Source: a virus. From it: a stretch of DNA of 64,000 nucleotides. The position numbers and the translations under genes were made by a program. The DNA lies in the IMG/VR virus record IMGVR_UViG_3300050821_003619, positions 45,251-109,250 of that record. The stretch is one strand, 5' to 3'. Below are positions 14,759 to 26,603 of this stretch, one piece after another (positions within the stretch are counted from its first letter, which is position 1; every line of letters begins with the position of its first letter). Under the pieces are notes generated by a model, which was given only the letters and a program-made list of their open reading frames with translations, ran no database searches and had not been told where the DNA came from.

Positions 14759-14990
14759 TCTTCCACGTAAAGTACTAGAAGATGTGCTTGAGTTTGCCGA
14801 TGACATAGCTGATATTCTGATTATGGTCAGAGGCACGGACGGTACGTTAGGGTTCGTTACAAGCACAGATGGGTTTGAATCAAGCTTAGCTTTAATTGAA
14901 TCCGTAAAATTTGGAATGCTCTTAAACAACGCAGTTAATAGCGGGTATAACCCCGGCACGGGGGACACTCCTCCGAAAGGATCAGCTTAA
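14646..14990 (+). CDS. Hypothetical protein
   Basis: GAGGAG SD before ATG at 14646 (MGEILEFKRP). Confidence 0.65.
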   Translation: MGEILEFKRPEPKMPSKKPIDASIPIVSSITTEETADSLPRKVLEDVLEFADDIADILIMVRGTDGTLGFVTSTDGFESSLALIESVKFGMLLNNAVNSGYNPGTGDTPPKGSA

Positions 14991-16387
14991 TGCTCAAAAA
15001 ACTTTTATTGTTCTTGTTCGTCGTAGCTTGTACGGTAACCGGTGTAGCCCAGATGGGAACAGGCATTTCCCAATTTGCAACGGCTGTCACCGGAGATAAC
15101 TTCGCACTATGCAGTGTATCCACGGGACGAAACTGCTTTAACCTTAGTGGTCCTGCATCTCCTGTGACCTTTACCAAGGTTGGGGCAGGTGTGGATAAAT
15201 TCGCTCTTGCTTTGGATGTGAACGGAAACATCTACAAGTTTAACGAATACCCGTCTGGAATCTGGACGGCTCTGCCTAATTTGGGAACTGGTTACAAAGG
15301 CATTGCTGTAGGAGACGCTAATCACGTCTACGTTCTAAAGAATGCCCGAGGAGCCGACTTTTACATCTACCAGCTAAACATGTCTACTGGAGCGCTGACA
15401 GCAGTCGCCGGAGGAGCAGGACAGCAGATTTCTGCCAAGGGCTCAACCGTAACAACCGCCATTAGCAACGGGGACGCTTTTGTAAGTCAAAACGGGGGAG
15501 AGTGGACTCTACTCCCGTGTGTCGGATGTTGGCGGTATGTTTCTCCGGCTTCTATTGGATACAGTGATTTTGTAGGTGCTAAAACCGATGAAAGTCTTTG
15601 GTACTACAACGGGAGCACTTTGAAACAAATTACTCCCGGTGGAGGATTGGCTATAGAAATGTCGCTCGAAGGCGATATCTATGTCATTGGCGGGGATAAT
15701 CCTGATCACATCTATCACTTGATCCTGTACAACTTCCTTAGCGGGAAAATAGCATGGGATGAGCTTGGTGGTGGACCTATGAGTGCCATCGCTACTGGCG
15801 GTACGATGTTCAACTGGTTCATTGGACCCCCGGTGAACGGATACACTATCTATCGCTTCGCAGACCAAGCTATCGGTGGACAAACAACTTTAACCGAAAA
15901 TTCTGTACAATGCTCTGGTCCCGGCTGTCCGGCGACTCACGTAGGAAAAACTTCGGCAGGACTGAACTTGTCTTCTAGTAATACTCCCAGTCCCAATACG
16001 GTTCCCGGCTCTCTTACTCAATGGACCGGTAATCCTACCAATCCGTTCAACATTAAATCGATTGCATGGGATAGTAACCCTTTCGATTGTTTAGATGATT
16101 TTGGTTGCAACATGATTTTCGACAATTCCACAGTGAACTGCAGCGTGCTTGGAAACATCGACAATCAGACTCTGGCAGATGGTGGACCATTGCCCTTGTG
16201 CCCTCCAGACAATCAATGCTGTTCTCTGGCGGACCCCGGCAACAAGAGCCTGCATCAATGCAGTGCGTTTTGTCCGCAGTATTGTCCTCCTCCACCACCA
16301 AAGCCGCCTGTTCCACCAACTCCTCCGAAGCCGAAGCCTACACCGCTTCCTCTTCCGTATCCTTGTAAGATTCATTGCCGCAAGTAA
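14990..16387 (+). CDS. Secreted beta-propeller/tectonin-like (lectin-like) protein with Cys-rich and Pro-rich C-terminus
   Basis: Signal peptide; ~35-40 aa repeats (ALDVNGNIY..W, IAVGDANHVY, EGDIYVIG..DHIY..W); C-terminal DGGPLPLC..CCSL and PPPPKPP tract. Confidence 0.65.
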   Translation: MLKKLLLFLFVVACTVTGVAQMGTGISQFATAVTGDNFALCSVSTGRNCFNLSGPASPVTFTKVGAGVDKFALALDVNGNIYKFNEYPSGIWTALPNLGTGYKGIAVGDANHVYVLKNARGADFYIYQLNMSTGALTAVAGGAGQQISAKGSTVTTAISNGDAFVSQNGGEWTLLPCVGCWRYVSPASIGYSDFVGAKTDESLWYYNGSTLKQITPGGGLAIEMSLEGDIYVIGGDNPDHIYHLILYNFLSGKIAWDELGGGPMSAIATGGTMFNWFIGPPVNGYTIYRFADQAIGGQTTLTENSVQCSGPGCPATHVGKTSAGLNLSSSNTPSPNTVPGSLTQWTGNPTNPFNIKSIAWDSNPFDCLDDFGCNMIFDNSTVNCSVLGNIDNQTLADGGPLPLCPPDNQCCSLADPGNKSLHQCSAFCPQYCPPPPPKPPVPPTPPKPKPTPLPLPYPCKIHCRK

Positions 16388-19793: not shown

Positions 19794-19849
19794 AAATAGC
19801 AGTAAAACAAGTGCGCCTTGCTAGCGTACAAAAACACGAAGGAGAATAC

Positions 19850-20449
19850 ATGAAAAGCTTAGTAAAAATGATTGTGCTTGCTGCAATCATCTCATTAAGT
19901 GGTTCGTGCTTTGCCCAGTGCAATGTACGGTGTCAGGCCGCTTTTAAATTTGTTGTGTCCCATGAAGATCGTAACTTAACCGGCGTAGTTAGCCCAGAAC
20001 CATTCGGGGGAGTAGCCCGTTTTGGTGTCAATAGCCACGCGCACCCAGAAGCAATCCGTGCAGGGTTTTACCGTATGAGCAAATTGCGAGCCCTGCGCTA
20101 TGCACAGAACCTGTTCTATAAGCAGTACTGGTCAAAGATGGATTGCGATCAGATTCAGGATTACCACTTGGCATATCGTGTAGCAGACCTTGCTTATAAT
20201 CTTGGACCAATACGTGCTACAATACTTCTACAGCGTGCACTGAATGAGCTAGGATCAAACCTTGTCACTAAAGGATACCTTGGACAAGACACTATAGACG
20301 CTCTGTCAAATCAGCCCTCTTCAGCGGTGAATGTGTTGTTAAAGGTGCAAGCTGTGGGATTCTATTCAAGATTGGCCCGTAAACATACAGTAATGCGTGC
20401 ATGGAAAGCAGTATGGATGGCTAGATTAGCAGAGACTGAGGAGGTATAA
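19850..20449 (+). CDS. GH108-like lysozyme with signal peptide and PG-binding domain
   Basis: AGGAG SD; signal peptide; HE...GG..RFGV...YKQYW...DLAYNLG..RA..LQRALN...GYLGQDT. Confidence 0.8.
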   Translation: MKSLVKMIVLAAIISLSGSCFAQCNVRCQAAFKFVVSHEDRNLTGVVSPEPFGGVARFGVNSHAHPEAIRAGFYRMSKLRALRYAQNLFYKQYWSKMDCDQIQDYHLAYRVADLAYNLGPIRATILLQRALNELGSNLVTKGYLGQDTIDALSNQPSSAVNVLLKVQAVGFYSRLARKHTVMRAWKAVWMARLAETEEV

Positions 20450-21078: not shown

Positions 21079-21423
21079 GACGCCGCGCGTTGGGAATTTA
21101 ACGGCTGCGGTGAGATATTTCGTAACGGGCAGAAGGTGGCGGTATGTTCTCGATCGATTGGCGGAAATCAGGAAGTATGCAGATTTATCGTGCGGGCCTG
21201 TAGCGATGACGCCACACTCCGCGAGCAGCTTGTCGCCGCACAGAAAGAGATCGAGCGGAAAGGAATTGCGTTGCGGCAACTAGTTGAAAAGCTCGACCAG
21301 ATGGAAAAGCCATTAATGGACCTGTGCATATTGAATCACACGCACGGAAGGCCATACACGGGGCCAAACTGGGCCGAAGAAATGAAGCTGGCCCGCGTCG
21401 CTCTCGCTCAGGAGAAGAAATGA
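21034..21423 (+). CDS. Hypothetical protein
   Basis: Carries the third repeat copy (PAVPR); C-terminal coiled coil. Confidence 0.65.
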   Translation: MYSMEKTERAPAVPRDAARWEFNGCGEIFRNGQKVAVCSRSIGGNQEVCRFIVRACSDDATLREQLVAAQKEIERKGIALRQLVEKLDQMEKPLMDLCILNHTHGRPYTGPNWAEEMKLARVALAQEKK

Positions 21424-21830
21424 AACTATTTAAACGTATGAGAGACGGGGGACCTGAATCCCCTGTCATTGGTTACTTCCTAATAGAAATTAAATCTCTG
21501 TTCTCAATTGTTCTGCTGCACTTCGGCGGGACCAGAGAGAACTTCCACAGCCACGCTTTCAATGCTGTAACGTTCTGGCTCAAAGGGCGTGTGCAAGAAA
21601 AAATAGTCTCCGCTTTGGGTAAAGAATATGGGCACGCTTGGACAGCAGGAAACTTGAAGTACACACCTCGTGGACTAATGCACAAGGTGGTTCCTATAAC
21701 CGACGCTTGGGCTATTTCATTTCGAGGGCCTTGGTCTAAGACGTGGCAGGAGTTCTCACCTACAGAGAATAAAACCACCACTCTTACGCATGGCCGTAAG
21801 GTGGTAGAGATTGAATATTTCGTAAAATAA
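21420..21830 (+). CDS. Cupin-like hypothetical protein
   Basis: AGGAG SD, ATG at 21420; FHSHAF...KG.V.E...HKV...FRGP. Confidence 0.7.
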   Translation: MKLFKRMRDGGPESPVIGYFLIEIKSLFSIVLLHFGGTRENFHSHAFNAVTFWLKGRVQEKIVSALGKEYGHAWTAGNLKYTPRGLMHKVVPITDAWAISFRGPWSKTWQEFSPTENKTTTLTHGRKVVEIEYFVK

Positions 21831-21831
21831 A

Positions 21832-21888
21832 CAAAAAAAATAGCCCCTGTAGACCTCCGATTTGGAGAAATCTACAGGGGCTTTTCTT
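21832..21888. terminator. Bidirectional intrinsic terminator between the convergent arms
   Basis: A8-T-AGCCCCTGTAGA...TCTACAGGGGCT-TTTCTT. Confidence 0.9.
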
Positions 21889-22027
21889 ATTTGGTATGTG
21901 CAACGTCTGCTGCTTTGAAAGGACCGCAACCCTTTGTACGACAAAGAGGCATTGGATCACTTCCATCAGCAAACATATTCATTGGCACCATAGCCAACAT
22001 TAACAACAGGATTAAACGTACTTTCAT
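21887..22027 (-). CDS. Secreted peptide 2 (46 aa, not in ORF track): MKVRLILLLMLAMVPMNMFA/DGSDPMPLCRTKGCGPFKAADVAHTK
   Basis: GGAGGA SD; ATG directly follows the upstream TAA; Sec signal ending M-F-A. Confidence 0.75.
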   Translation of the reverse strand: MKVRLILLLMLAMVPMNMFADGSDPMPLCRTKGCGPFKAADVAHTK

Positions 22028-22198
22028 TTAGCTTCCTCCACAATGTACTGGACCAGTTAAACTGCAGCACTTTTTAGAAGGCTCACAAAGAGGCAACGGG
22101 CCACCATCTTTGCGAACGTGAGAAGCACTGATTGCAGCCTGAGCGATACCGCAGCCTAGGACGCCGAACAGCACGTACAACATCAGTTCTTTCTTCAT
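22028..22198 (-). CDS. Secreted peptide 1 (56 aa, not in ORF track): MKKELMLYVLFGVLGCGIAQAAISASHVRKDGGPLPLCEPSKKCCSLTGPVHCGGS
   Basis: Signal-like N-terminus; DGGPLPLCx5CCSL motif shared with 14990-16387. Confidence 0.75.
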   Translation of the reverse strand: MKKELMLYVLFGVLGCGIAQAAISASHVRKDGGPLPLCEPSKKCCSLTGPVHCGGS

Positions 22199-22239
22199 GT
22201 TTTACTTCTTTCTCTCTGCATCGTTACCACAGAGGCCGT

Positions 22240-22998
22240 CTACAATACACCAGAACCGATCAAAATGCCAATAGCTAATACTGGGGGAGCAATTTTAGCC
22301 ACAGTCTTCGCCCCGGATATAAAGCGTTGCCATCTGGACGGCTTGACCACCCGCTTGTAATCAGCAATAGTCTTGTTGGCACCGGTTAAAGTGTCCTTGC
22401 ATTGATTTAAGTCGTTGGTAAGACTAGAGATATTGCCATTTTGTAGGTCAACGATCTGCTTCTCATCCTGAAAATTGGCCGTTTCGGTGTCTAACTGTAC
22501 CTTTGTAATAGCCACTTTTTGGGCCTGAGGCGTTGTCAGAGCGATAGTTGAGTCAGGGGAGGCAGTTACTGGCCCAAAGGCTGGGTCAGAGGCGTATAAC
22601 GCATCTAATGCGTTTTTGACCTGAATAACCGAAGCATTGGGCTGTAAACCGGTCTGAACTACCGGTGGAGGGGGAGCCGTAGCTCTACGGGCCACCTGAG
22701 CTTCAAGGTCGGCTATTTTAGCGTTAGCCTGCTGACGCTCTGCTGAATCCTGAGCTAGCTGCTGCCTAAAGGCGTCTAGTTGTGCCGTATATGCGGCTTG
22801 TTGAGTCTGTGCCTTGTCGAGCAAGGTGTTGAAGCCTTTGAGGGCCATGTAGCCACCGGCACATGCCATGCCGATGACCAGAACAAGAACTGCGAGCACG
22901 CCATAGGACAAAGTTAAAGTTCTATGAGCCAAGCTCGCAAATTCTCCGTGAAGGTCACTCAGTAGTTGGCTACTGCTTACTTGTGTTGGTTCCGCCAT
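22240..22998 (-). CDS. Spanin-like membrane-anchored coiled-coil protein
   Basis: N-terminal TM, Q/A-rich coiled coils, Pro hinge, hydrophobic C-terminus. Confidence 0.55.
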   Translation of the reverse strand: MAEPTQVSSSQLLSDLHGEFASLAHRTLTLSYGVLAVLVLVIGMACAGGYMALKGFNTLLDKAQTQQAAYTAQLDAFRQQLAQDSAERQQANAKIADLEAQVARRATAPPPPVVQTGLQPNASVIQVKNALDALYASDPAFGPVTASPDSTIALTTPQAQKVAITKVQLDTETANFQDEKQIVDLQNGNISSLTNDLNQCKDTLTGANKTIADYKRVVKPSRWQRFISGAKTVAKIAPPVLAIGILIGSGVL

Positions 22999-23692
22999 CT
23001 TGAGTCTCCGATGGATTAAAAGTACGTGCTACGTCTAAAGTTTTTTGTGTGAAATTAAGAATAAACCCTGCGGACTGGTGAACATTACGATGCCAGAACC
23101 ATAGAAACTTTTCTACTGATTCGGTTCTGTACGTCATCACAGCTACAATCTGATTTTGAGAGTTGTATACCGCCGAACCACTGTCACCTGCTATTGATAG
23201 AATAGTGTAGTAGCCAAGATGGGCATCCTGATCAACATCACTTACTGGGTCACCCTCTAGAAATTTTCCTTGCTTTAATGTGCAGGGAAAACCTCCTCCA
23301 CCACAACCGTAAATATACACTGCTTCTCCAGCAGATAAATCTTTGGGGTCAGCCTGTACAACAGCTAGGTTTCTAAACGGTGCTTCTGCTAGAACAACGA
23401 TCATATGGTCTCGACCGTCGCCTGTAGCAGCGATTACTTGGTATTTATGAACTGAAAAATCAATAGTAATATGATCAGCTATACGGTCATCTTCTGCACA
23501 ATGGCTGGCTGTGAGAAAAGCAGCCGGTCCAATAGCGGTTGCTGTACAGGAGTCTACTGGTTCACCGTCTTTATCTAAAAATGAAATAAGATGTGAGGCT
23601 CTTTGCTGAGCGGTTACGGGCGTATTCTTGGTACATCCGAGGGAGAAGAGAAGGGCCACCGACAATAACGCAGTGGCGATGCGCTGGTGCAT
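22970..23692 (-). CDS. Lipoprotein trypsin-like serine protease (S1)
   Basis: Lipobox SLGC; CTAT...FLTASHC; D; GDSGSAV. Confidence 0.88.
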   Translation of the reverse strand: MHQRIATALLSVALLFSLGCTKNTPVTAQQRASHLISFLDKDGEPVDSCTATAIGPAAFLTASHCAEDDRIADHITIDFSVHKYQVIAATGDGRDHMIVVLAEAPFRNLAVVQADPKDLSAGEAVYIYGCGGGGFPCTLKQGKFLEGDPVSDVDQDAHLGYYTILSIAGDSGSAVYNSQNQIVAVMTYRTESVEKFLWFWHRNVHQSAGFILNFTQKTLDVARTFNPSETQDGGTNTSKQ

Positions 23693-23759
23693 TGGAGTTT
23701 CCTACAGGGCACATATTAAACTGGTACTCATTTTGAGCACCCCTGTTCCAGTTTGCAAC

Positions 23760-23801
23760 AAAAATGCCCACCCAGTTTCCTGAACTGTGGGTGGGCGTAT
23801 T
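23760..23801 (-). terminator. Intrinsic terminator after the dNMP kinase
   Basis: Minus strand ACGCCCACCCA...GGGTGGGCAT-TTTT. Confidence 0.75.
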
Positions 23802-23828
23802 GGCAGGCTATTTTTTTATGGACGTTTC

Positions 23829-24551
23829 TCAGGATGCCAAGCTATCAAATAACTTTACAGCTTTTGCTTTGAATTCTTCCAACGTAGAGTAGTTCTTCAA
23901 AATAGCTCCCCAGTCCCAATCGGGAACATCGGCCAGAGCTAATTCTGAAGCATGGACTCCAGCACTACCACTAAGAGAAGGCAGATTATTGCGATCCACC
24001 CTGATAGAGTACCCATGTTTTTCTACGAACTCCTTCTCATTGGGAAAACGCATATCAGAAATCAGAGCTACTTGCGGTTGCTCTTTAGAGATAATCTCAG
24101 CCAAACGATCTACCCAATAATTTGGATTAACATTGCGGCGGAATTCTGTGCCCCACCATTGCAAGAGTGTACGTTGTTTACCTAGAGGACACAATGGGTC
24201 ATCCATCGGTGCATCCGGTTCAAATACCACCCACTCTGGCAGCTTAATGAAGTTGCCGTTCTCTTGGTAGAATTCCATCTCTGGATTACACAAGCGATCC
24301 ATACCACCAGCATTAAGCGCAGCAGCAGTGACTTCTTCTTTGAGTGCGCGAGCGAATGAGTATGCTCGCGCATCGTAGAATGGACCTTTGTAATCACTTG
24401 AGAGATGGCCGGGATATTGACTTCCCCTGCGTTCAACTATAGTAGCTACGGCAGTGTCTTTACCTGAGCGAGCCCTATGTCCGAACCCGAGGATCAATGA
24501 CTTAATCTCTGGTTCAACCTTGGCTTTGGGGCGAAGGGGTTCAGGAAGCAT
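23829..24551 (-). CDS. Deoxynucleoside monophosphate kinase (T4 gp1-like)
   Basis: ILGFGHRARSGKDT, SFARALK, RTLLQWWGTE.RR, ISDMRFPNE, HASE. Confidence 0.9.
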   Translation of the reverse strand: MLPEPLRPKAKVEPEIKSLILGFGHRARSGKDTAVATIVERRGSQYPGHLSSDYKGPFYDARAYSFARALKEEVTAAALNAGGMDRLCNPEMEFYQENGNFIKLPEWVVFEPDAPMDDPLCPLGKQRTLLQWWGTEFRRNVNPNYWVDRLAEIISKEQPQVALISDMRFPNEKEFVEKHGYSIRVDRNNLPSLSGSAGVHASELALADVPDWDWGAILKNYSTLEEFKAKAVKLFDSLAS

Positions 24552-24715
24552 TATTGCTTTCTCCCTGAGCGTTGTTTACGCAGTGACACCTCAGCTTCTT
24601 CTTTGGTCAATCCATGGTTACCGGCACGAAACAACGTTACGCCGGGGATAACAACTTCTCCGACACCGTAGGTACCGTCTGCATACTGACGAAAAACCAG
24701 TTCTACCTGAGTCAT
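24551..24715 (-). CDS. Small hypothetical protein (54 aa, not in ORF track)
   Basis: AGGAG SD; MTQVELVFRQYADG...; ATGA and TAATG overlaps. Confidence 0.55.
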   Translation of the reverse strand: MTQVELVFRQYADGTYGVGEVVIPGVTLFRAGNHGLTKEEAEVSLRKQRSGRKQ

Positions 24716-25134
24716 TTGGTCTCCTGTCTATCTACTGTTACAAGATTGTCCCATGCATAATTACTAAGCATTTTACGGATGACTTCTCCCTCAGCTTGCG
24801 TGAAGGTTGCTACATCCTTATGCGCTCCCACACGAGCGCTGCCCTTTTCGGTCTTAAGCGCGTATTGATGCGCCAACAAGGAACCGGCGAGGGTAAAAGC
24901 TGTGTAGAAGATTCCGGCACCAATGGCAGGCAGTACACCTAATTTACCTGACAGGATGCCCATAAAGGCTCCTACAGCGAAAATCTGGGATACGAACCAT
25001 ACGCCATTGGAAAAGAAACCAGCGACGAGGTGCTTTGATAATGAGCCACTATTACGTGCGCGAGACACGAACGTAAAAGCAAAGTTTTGGGCGATCAAAA
25101 TGACCGCCCACATGAACCACATTTTTTCTGACAT
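24712..25134 (-). CDS. Multi-pass membrane protein
   Basis: 3-4 TM segments; AGGAG upstream. Confidence 0.7.
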   Translation of the reverse strand: MSEKMWFMWAVILIAQNFAFTFVSRARNSGSLSKHLVAGFFSNGVWFVSQIFAVGAFMGILSGKLGVLPAIGAGIFYTAFTLAGSLLAHQYALKTEKGSARVGAHKDVATFTQAEGEVIRKMLSNYAWDNLVTVDRQETK

Positions 25135-25154
25135 GAGTCTGAGTCAATCTCCTG

Positions 25155-26603
25155 TTAAATGCGACCGAACTTCTCTTCATACTCAACTGCGAACTGAGCA
25201 TATCCATTGGGTTCCTCACGTTGAACGTGTGTACAATCAATGAAGTATTGCCAAGTCTGAATCTGCTTGTCCGATACACCGAATAACCACTGACCGGCTG
25301 GAATTACTTCTAGCCCCCAGTTAACGCCTAGTTCGTTCTGCCCATTGAGACTTCCGTTAGATAGAAGCCGAGGGAAAGAGACGGGGACGTGTATGTCACC
25401 GATGACGAAGCGGTCAAAGGTAGCTCCCTCCAATCCCGCATGGGCACGATAGGTTGGAGAATCAAACAAGGCTCGTGTGTGATTGATGAACGACGAGATA
25501 CTCTTTGCTTGAGCTTCTGGGCTGTTTTTGTAGCCCACTTCCATACCGTGGTTAAATCCATAACGATGTCCTCTGATGTTCTCAAATATGAACGGGCTCA
25601 TTGTGTCATGGACTGTGATTCCCTTGTGCCCTTTGAATTTATCAATGAGCATCTGGTAGATCAGCCAGTCAAACGTGCGCTGAGCTTGCAGCTTCGTAGG
25701 CATTTTGTGATCTTCCATCATTCGCATATGGTTTCCCACGCTGAACAACAGAACGATCTCTTCGATGACCCCTTCGTCAATCAAGGTCAAAAGGTCCTCG
25801 ATAACGAAGCGAAGCATGTGATACGAGAAGTGAATCTGAGGAGCAATGAAAAGCGCGTTGCTCTTTGGGGCATCGTGCAAATCCCCGTTACCAATGTCTC
25901 CCAGAATAGGCACATATAGACGCTTAATCGGGTACATTGCACGGTGAAGAGCCAGAATCTTCTTGGCCTTCTGCACTGTGTATCCCATACGGTTCCCAGC
26001 AATCTGCAAATCAAATTCAGGAAACCCGCTGGTATCGGCAGTTCTGATTACGTCACCGAAGTGGGTGTCAGAGATAACAAATACCGCATCTTCTGAGTGG
26101 GTAGACTTCACTGGAGGCTGAGCCTGAGGTTTCTGTGCTCTTACCAATGTGACCGGGGACTTAAAATCTCCCATGGCCTGTGTAAAGTCCTTAATGTTCT
26201 TTAGCAGGTCTTCCCATCCAGCATGGTTAGCGGAAAGATGCTCACGCATTGCTTTCTCAGCTTCCAACTGTTTACGAAGTCTAGCGATCTGGCGAGTCAG
26301 GGTAGCGTTTTGCTGCAAAACATAGCTCTGCAGGTTACCTGACGTATCGCCTATGGCAAACTGCGTTACTGCCTTGTCTTCTGCTTTGTCAGGTGCCGCT
26401 TGTAGTCTGTTTGCGACCTTTACTAATTTTTGTTCTTGAATGTAGCGTTGAATCTTTGTGGCACTTGTCGATCCGCATGAGAGATGTTCACGTAATCCAT
26501 CTCTGGTCAGTTCTTCTCCCTCAGCTTCTATCGACTGGGCGTACGGTAGGGCTTTTTTAAGCAACTCTAACTCGTGCGCCGATAGCTCAACTTTCGGCAT
26601 CAT
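25155..26603 (-). CDS. Calcineurin-like metallophosphoesterase with N-terminal helical/coiled-coil region
   Basis: SDTHFGD, LGDIGNG, VGNH, FNHG, IGDIH motifs. Confidence 0.85.
   Translation of the reverse strand: MMPKVELSAHELELLKKALPYAQSIEAEGEELTRDGLREHLSCGSTSATKIQRYIQEQKLVKVANRLQAAPDKAEDKAVTQFAIGDTSGNLQSYVLQQNATLTRQIARLRKQLEAEKAMREHLSANHAGWEDLLKNIKDFTQAMGDFKSPVTLVRAQKPQAQPPVKSTHSEDAVFVISDTHFGDVIRTADTSGFPEFDLQIAGNRMGYTVQKAKKILALHRAMYPIKRLYVPILGDIGNGDLHDAPKSNALFIAPQIHFSYHMLRFVIEDLLTLIDEGVIEEIVLLFSVGNHMRMMEDHKMPTKLQAQRTFDWLIYQMLIDKFKGHKGITVHDTMSPFIFENIRGHRYGFNHGMEVGYKNSPEAQAKSISSFINHTRALFDSPTYRAHAGLEGATFDRFVIGDIHVPVSFPRLLSNGSLNGQNELGVNWGLEVIPAGQWLFGVSDKQIQTWQYFIDCTHVQREEPNGYAQFAVEYEEKFGRI

Follow-up and report, generated by a model that had tools for sequence, protein, structure and literature searches.

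The phage analyzed here, which comes from soil, carries two small, coupled genes, P1 and P2. The reading that we favor, with somewhat better than even confidence, is that they encode mimics of two paralogous exported peptides of the host that act on host membrane proteins of a seven-helix family, which we call c1. Since the host peptide genes lie beside genes for these seven-transmembrane (7TM) proteins, the phage probably exports look-alikes of its own host's peptides. The window, i.e., the whole 64-kb stretch of DNA under analysis, is the right part of a virus record that is complete, measures 109,250 bp, and has direct terminal repeats. An earlier sequence-only reading of the window could see neither the c1 partner nor the correspondence of P1 and P2 to separate host paralogues. 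What is new here is the pairing of host peptides with 7TM proteins, the existence of two classes that are both copied, a precursor architecture particular to phages, and the accessory status of the two genes.

Up to position ∼21,830, the genes of the window point rightward; from its far end back to 21,887, they point leftward. P1 (22028..22198, minus strand) is an ORF with an ATG start and a TAA stop that encodes a predicted exported peptide precursor of 56 aa, and P2 (21887..22027, minus strand), also starting with ATG, encodes a predicted precursor of 46 aa. The two genes meet in the sequence TAAATG, the stop codon of P1 abutting the start codon of P2, and a GGAGGA Shine-Dalgarno sequence for P2, as read from the sequence, lies within the final codons of P1 (22034..22039, minus strand), 6 nt upstream of the P2 ATG. 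An intrinsic terminator (21842..21882, minus strand), whose hairpin begins 5 nt past the P2 stop codon and has a 17-pair stem with 8 G-C pairs followed by a T-run, ends the minus-strand arm. We thus confirmed that P1 and P2 are real, coupled minus-strand genes ending at a strong terminator, and the two ORFs for Cys-containing peptides that the sequence-only reading had placed ahead of the terminator are both present. That reading called them unannotated, which is correct for its own ORF track and incorrect elsewhere, as P1 already exists as a called protein in sequence clusters.

Both N termini read as a basic n-region followed by a hydrophobic core. P1 consists of a predicted signal peptide (aa 1 to 21, with an AQA site), a 9-aa linker ending in RK, the sequence DGGPLPLC (aa 31 to 38), and a tail with four Cys. 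P2 consists of a predicted 20-aa signal peptide ending in MFA that is directly followed by the mature sequence DGSDPMPLCR, with a C-x4-C loop. From the box on, P1 has 4 Cys and P2 has 2, in agreement with the counts first given for the mature parts; P1 contains another Cys, unmentioned at the time, inside its signal peptide. Neither P1 nor P2 matched a Pfam family.

With P1 alone as the query, a search of 5.8 billion sequence clusters returned only P1 itself, and a search of metagenome contigs returned no relative; the family emerged via DNA-pattern scans and a profile. We scanned 185,579 species, one genome each, for the exact DGGPLPLC-x-P pattern and obtained 39 matches, 18 of which are ORFs of ∼50 codons with a strong ribosome-binding site. 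These ORFs start exactly 29 codons ahead of the box, except one that starts 33 codons ahead. Seventeen of them belong to MAGs labeled Acidobacteriota, Acidobacteriaceae, Terriglobales, or Sulfotelmatobacter, and the remaining one belongs to a MAG labeled Eisenbacteria and has neighbors identical in type to those of the others. The sequence-only reading had attributed short signal-plus-DGGPxPLC ORFs to Acidobacteriota genomes, and this attribution proved accurate. The other 21 genome matches, as well as loci L002 to L004, L047, and L099 to L101, were discarded as chance occurrences because they had no signal peptide or lay inside unrelated frames.

A profile made from 12 sequences retrieved 649 of the 5.8 billion clusters, the best 120 of which scored at least 81 bits. 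In the family alignment, the residues D, G, P, P, L, and C are invariant. Every name given to these clusters is "hypothetical protein," none has a Pfam domain, neither Pfam nor NCBIfam holds a model of the family, and a literature search for the motif found nothing relevant. Judged by their sequences, the DG-box peptides are a large family that was previously undescribed. The family was present in 5 of 301 genomes of a phylum-wide sample, in 38 of 201 genomes of an order-wide sample, and in 67 of 151 genomes of the GTDB family of the reference genome; these tallies include a few genomes flagged as unpublished (G366, G484, and G500), which underlie no specific claim made here other than one paired locus of G500. 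All members detected in genomes occur in Acidobacteriota-type loci. The peptide gene is mostly single copy per genome, with occasional tandem arrays. Three loci (L062, at G053:C72:33000-35300, L063, and L064) contain 2 or 3 tandem peptide genes after a single c1 gene, with near-identical mature parts. Two metagenome proteins of 131 to 132 aa (P0124 and P0125) are host-type precursors in which a single leader is followed by four DG-box units in tandem, with V/L-A ahead of each unit, a layout like that of polyprotein precursors of peptides. A search of three host loci with Rfam found nothing adjoining the peptide gene. An Acido-Lenti-1 small RNA (RF01687, 43.7 bits; L035, 6431-6476, minus strand) located ∼3.6 kb from a host peptide gene is probably unrelated.

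The host peptide genes are paired with c1-family genes in two arrangements. In class i, the peptide gene lies ∼450 nt downstream of a 315-aa c1 gene and is convergent with a gene for a DUF255 thioredoxin-domain protein. In class ii, the order is reversed, the peptide gene preceding the c1 gene, which is followed by genes for one or two small cytoplasmic proteins. Across the 151 genomes, 74 of the 79 credible peptide matches (one of the 74 being supplied by the unpublished genome G500) had a same-strand neighbor of the c1 family no further than ∼1.3 kb away; the five unpaired matches were four strong class i genes with no c1 gene within 2 kb and one weak match. The weaker peptide matches adjoin c1 paralogues and lie directly upstream of them. 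The c1 family, paralogues included, was found in 141 of the 151 genomes. Among metagenome contigs, a scan with the P2-box pattern yielded at least 119 loci, 113 of which had room for a neighboring gene, and a c1-family gene was located downstream in 109 of these 113. Beyond the 7TM gene, class ii operons encode a conserved cytoplasmic protein of 130 to 190 aa and often another of 90 aa (L102, 5299-5688, plus strand; L105, 3024-3485 and 2655-2927, minus strand), the two being fused in one genome. No known family includes either protein; the third genes of these operons matched no PADLOC, Pfam, or NCBIfam family, apart from a subthreshold match to Imm72 (E ∼0.05).

The c1 protein has seven predicted helices, and we interpret its topology, by the positive-inside rule, as N-out and C-in. 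It matched nothing in Pfam, NCBIfam, or PADLOC, and its relatives in the ESM Atlas were unnamed acidobacterial clusters only. The family has 3,625 representatives at an E value of ≤1e-3, the best 150 of which are all stand-alone proteins, so no fused output domain among these hints at a function. An AF2 model of c1 (pLDDT 81) has seven helices, and its best structural matches were almost all GPCR-like 7TM proteins, with Z scores of 10 to 11.8, below the value of ∼13 advised for helical bundles, and an rmsd of 4.3 to 5 over 200 to 220 residues. Foldseek returned E values of ≥0.1, with Ste2 among the weak fold matches. The GPCR-like match shows only that the model shares a common helical-bundle arrangement. 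Prediction of a complex between c1 residues 1 to 250 and the native peptide, both supplied as alignments, gave a score of 0.01 and a mark of 0.32, values that speak neither for binding nor against it. Judged from gene adjacency, c1 could be a receptor or an immunity, export, or processing protein.

An immunity role for c1 would turn the host peptide into a Sec-exported antibacterial, with c1 as the immunity or sensor protein, and the phage copies into weapons directed at competitors that are not infected or into triggers of a host death pathway. The class ii order, in which a peptide gene precedes a polytopic membrane gene in one operon, is the usual layout of bacteriocin and immunity genes, and the tandem arrays of some genomes, as well as a conserved N-terminal box with its predicted disulfide ahead of a variable tail, are also in line with such a role. 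The nearest model for a peptide with a polytopic membrane partner is that of SdpC and SdpI of Bacillus subtilis, in which the gene of a small disulfide peptide that is exported adjoins that of its membrane partner; SdpI-family proteins are polytopic and have a double role in immunity and signaling (PMC2910880). However, the mature host peptides are proline-rich, have only 13 to 22 residues, much fewer than SdpC, and contain no amphipathic or hydrophobic segment. No relation to SdpC was found by sequence or Pfam, and the host loci that we examined contained neither an SdpR-like regulator gene nor an exporter gene. The class i gene is single copy and occupies a fixed syntenic site in many genomes, whereas bacteriocin loci are mobile. 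Pfam, NCBIfam, and PADLOC yielded no match among families of bacteriocins or immunity proteins, and P1 and P2 themselves, compared with class II bacteriocins and SdpC, showed no family match and have Sec-type leaders. Moreover, a phage without an immunity gene would endanger its own host cell. We consider a toxin and immunity system unlikely.

The two phage peptides correspond to the two host classes. We built an HMM from 113 host class i sequences and searched it among the 2,386 six-frame ORFs of the phage. It aligned to P1 over positions 1 to 49 (E = 5e-8) and did not match P2. The boxes closest to that of P1 were those of L040 and of genome G693, whose class i peptide is similar to P1 in the box and in the four residues that follow it. 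As for P2, its first ten mature residues are identical to those of class ii peptides. Of 401 genomes of the family, 8 contained the exact P2-box coding pattern, the reversed control gave no match, and a c1 paralogue was directly downstream in all eight. The class ii peptide of G693 (L083) shares 16 of 18 mature residues with P2 at a nucleotide identity of 69%. The comparison gave 14 synonymous differences over 11.8 sites and 3 nonsynonymous differences over 42 sites; synonymous sites are thus saturated while residues are kept, which shows, at the level of these sequences, selection on the protein. As the closest relative of P2 and a near relative of P1 are both found in G693, the phage pair mirrors two loci of one host lineage. 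These class i and class ii matches support the proposal of host-peptide mimicry and of a hint to the host that was made before any homologue had been seen. The host would belong to an order-level group around Terriglobales, an assignment drawn entirely from these peptides; the G+C content counts against it, as it is 45.6% in the phage and ∼54 to 60% in the host loci.

Host and phage versions differ in how the conserved unit is presented. This unit, the DG box with a short predicted disulfide loop, is 13 to 25 residues long. Host precursors place it behind a conserved leader, to which class ii adds a propeptide of ∼20 aa. In the 109 host-type metagenome loci, 15 to 22 residues (median, 21) separate the hydrophobic segment from the DG, the mature part most often has 15 residues, and 95 of the 109 contain a C-x4-C loop like that of P2. 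The four loci without c1 showed gaps of 0, 0, 6, and 16 residues; one of them is the viral contig L098, and the other three are accompanied by a terminase fragment, a Sak4-like gene, or a PHROG family. At least ten viral or phage-like contigs other than our phage carry such peptides (among them L001, L046, L048, L096, L097, L098, L138, L166, and L220). Among those from IMG/VR, L001, L046, and L048 are class i-like and L096, L097, and L098 are class ii-like. The phage-borne versions have a plain signal peptide close to the DG, with an A-x-A-type site directly before the DG in at least six of them. No c1 gene was found in the fetched regions of the phage-type loci, as judged with the c1 profile for L096 to L098, L138, L166, and L220 and by inspection of ORF lists for L001, L046, and L048, and our whole phage contains no c1 homologue. 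The absence of a c1 neighbor separates phage-type from host-type loci. The same streamlined architecture thus recurs in unrelated phages.

The A-x-A sites at the DG, together with the V/L-A that precedes the tandem units of the multicopy precursors, support a working unit that starts at Asp-Gly. The same A-x-A sites and VA|DGG junctions agree with the mature end at Asp-Gly that had been predicted from P1 and P2 alone. They suggest that phages bypass the processing of the host leader and propeptide. P1 is exceptional in that it keeps the 9-residue linker ending in RK after its AQA site. P1 and the class i-like phage versions have four mature Cys versus two in host peptides, and a second disulfide may stabilize them. 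Conservation of the host class i leader exceeds that of an ordinary signal peptide, so that the native form may stay anchored in the membrane, and the soluble copies of the phage may act differently. MgrB, a small membrane regulator of ∼50 aa that acts on PhoQ, has an N-terminal hydrophobic segment and two conserved Cys in a short periplasmic tail, features that would fit the host class i form if its leader were left uncleaved. The c1 partner, in contrast, has seven predicted transmembrane helices and no kinase domain, and the phage forms have signal peptides that are clearly predicted to be cleavable.

A third copy of the box is present in the phage, near the C terminus of a 465-aa secreted, tectonin-like protein (14990..16387, plus strand) that has several further Cys and ends in a poly-Pro/Lys stalk. 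This copy, DGGPLPLC with a CC-S-L stretch (16178..16231, plus strand), was recognized as an in-frame pattern match. P1, P2, and the 465-aa protein all carry a D-G-[GS]-(x)-P-x-P-x-C box and a second Cys 2 to 8 residues further on. The degenerate DNA pattern for D-G-x-P-x-P-L-C had 2 matches in the window versus 0.00 expected from 100 shuffles, and the whole 109,250-bp phage contains exactly three box copies. The HMM built from host class i sequences also matched this third copy, with an E value of 2e-6. Across the box, P1 and the 465-aa protein have 13 of 18 residues in common, 9 of them via different codons (pS = 1.0, pN = 0.25), so conservation between the two boxes is at the protein level. 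The 465-aa protein matched no PHROG, Pfam, or NCBIfam family. Its Atlas model, of low confidence (pLDDT 0.53), resembles tectonin and fish-egg-lectin propellers, and the tectonin-like fold is only a lead.

The position of this third copy, C-terminal in a large secreted protein and ahead of a poly-Pro stalk, raises the possibility that the DG-box loop is a docking tag, a periplasmic anchor to c1 or to another envelope component, by which the 465-aa protein would be localized. Free P1 and P2 would then occupy its sites and could, for example, exclude superinfecting phages. Host precursors with four tandem units and the conserved class i leader, which may be a membrane anchor, would also suit such a function. 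Yet among proteins longer than 116 aa, which provide a weak test, only the 465-aa protein of the phage combines the box with a larger domain; the remaining true long matches are multicopy or 5'-extended peptide precursors. Besides, the phage versions are mostly free peptides, and nothing points to an envelope partner besides c1. A docking tag or blocker as the general role of the box seems to us rather improbable.

The surroundings of P1 and P2 show that they are accessory genes. Upstream of P1 on the same strand are genes for a 252-aa membrane coiled-coil protein, a trypsin-fold lipoprotein protease, a dNMP kinase, and an exonuclease. The 252-aa protein (22240-22998, minus strand) has hydrophobic segments at its N and C termini, a long coiled coil, and a faint LysB-like match (E = 0.2); a search for viral relatives of it found none. 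The serine protease (22970-23692, minus strand; Trypsin_2, E = 2e-9; phrog_9683) has a lipoprotein-type signal (LGC), its gene overlaps the next one by 29 nt, and by our reading of the sequence it has Leu instead of Asp at the residue aligned with trypsin S1. On the other side of the terminator, an endolysin-like gene (19811..20449, plus strand; phrog_315, E = 3e-17) and a cysteine-dioxygenase-like gene (21324-21830, plus strand; phrog_4786, E = 6e-17) end the plus-strand arm that faces P1 and P2. A nucleotide search with positions 21800 to 25200 against 50,697 phage records gave no match. The exonuclease is common to two viral contigs at 69 to 73% identity, one of which, L075 (69%), spans the P1/P2 region and is the only related phage contig to do so. 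Besides the dNMP kinase, L075 retains a counterpart of the membrane coiled-coil protein, a homologue of 241 aa, and it contains no protease, no P1 or P2, and no box in 17 kb. The absence of P1 and P2 from L075 indicates that they are accessory, moron-like genes and not partners of the upstream membrane protein, and the missing protease gene points to a second accessory insertion nearby.

Small ORFs with signal peptides at the end of an operon could also be inert fragments captured from a host or serve communication between phages. P1 and P2, however, have intact frames with their own signal peptides and ribosome-binding sites, residues are conserved at saturated synonymous sites, and the architecture recurs in unrelated phages, all of which argues against inert capture. 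Communication between phages is exemplified by the arbitrium system of Bacillus phages, in which aimP, a small gene of the phage whose product has a signal peptide, gives rise to a short extracellular peptide, a mature hexapeptide from the C terminus of AimP, and the phage encodes AimR, its cytoplasmic receptor. In P1 and P2, the conserved part is instead the mature N terminus, with a predicted disulfide loop; the neighboring genes encode a protease, a membrane coiled-coil protein, and a dNMP kinase; we found no receptor gene in the phage; and the sequences copy host peptides rather than being specific to phages. The arbitrium-like logic of the sequence-only reading was thus not borne out, and we give very little credence to either explanation. 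Still more doubtful is a function in lysis, in which P1, with L-G-C at aa 14 to 16 (a VLGC lipobox), would be an outer membrane lipoprotein serving as o-spanin together with the 252-aa protein, whose N-terminal transmembrane segment, coiled coil, and faint LysB match, like the endolysin-like gene 1.6 kb away across the terminator, would suit a spanin partner, since this Cys is absent from all homologues and aligns inside the hydrophobic core of the signal peptide, no PHROG spanin match was found, L075 retains the 241-aa protein without P1 and P2, and both the accessory status and the homology to host chromosomal genes adjoining 7TM genes speak against it.

Mimicry of two host peptides is the explanation that we retain, and it may operate as follows. 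The phage keeps the DG-box unit alone, behind an ordinary Sec signal peptide, from which signal peptidase alone would release the finished peptide. In the infected cell, the peptide would enter the periplasm, and lysis would then allow it to reach neighboring cells. Most likely, P1 would bind the class i c1 partner and P2 the class ii partner, and they would act as agonists or as blockers of the action of the native peptides. On the lectin-like 465-aa protein, the third copy of the box could be used as a docking tag. In a bolder version, which we put forward tentatively and consider possible rather than probable, soil Acidobacteriota would possess an undescribed system of signaling by disulfide-loop peptides via a GPCR-shaped 7TM protein, which phages would hijack with prematured ligands, one per receptor paralogue, plus a lectin-tethered copy.

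The nearest described case is that of phiCDHM1, a phage of Clostridioides difficile that carries host-derived agrD, agrB, and agrC (PMC3901668). There too, a phage-borne homologue of a host precursor for an exported signaling peptide was proposed to influence the host or neighboring cells (PMC3901668). In contrast to phiCDHM1, which also has the AgrB processing enzyme and the AgrC receptor kinase of a characterized system, the P1/P2 phage carries peptides only, which would need signal peptidase alone, and it copies two host paralogues of a family that was, like its 7TM partner, undescribed. P1 and P2 showed no Pfam match to AgrD, and AgrB is absent from among their gene neighbors. Yeast alpha-factor is exported from a multicopy precursor and is perceived by Ste2, a stand-alone 7TM receptor. 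The tandem-copy precursors P0124 and P0125 and the predicted N-out, C-in topology of the 7TM protein c1 are reminiscent of this pair, whereas no homology between them is apparent, the fold match is of a kind that 7TM bundles share in general, and the bacterial pairing is one of gene adjacency. We know of no equivalent of a G protein in bacteria.

Acidobacteriota are a dominant phylum of soil bacteria that is poorly studied and has few characterized phages. To our knowledge, few systems of phage-borne host communication genes have been described, none of them from Acidobacteriota. P1 and P2 provide two predicted mature peptides of ∼26 residues each, together with a candidate partner family, c1. 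By discarding the leader and the propeptide and retaining the DG-box loop, the phage versions point out which part of the host peptide is active. Should c1 mediate the action of the peptides, the two would represent a new bacterial system made of a peptide and a 7TM protein, as well as a new route by which phages manipulate their hosts, and the class i and class ii box types would become a marker with which hosts may be assigned to uncultured soil phages.
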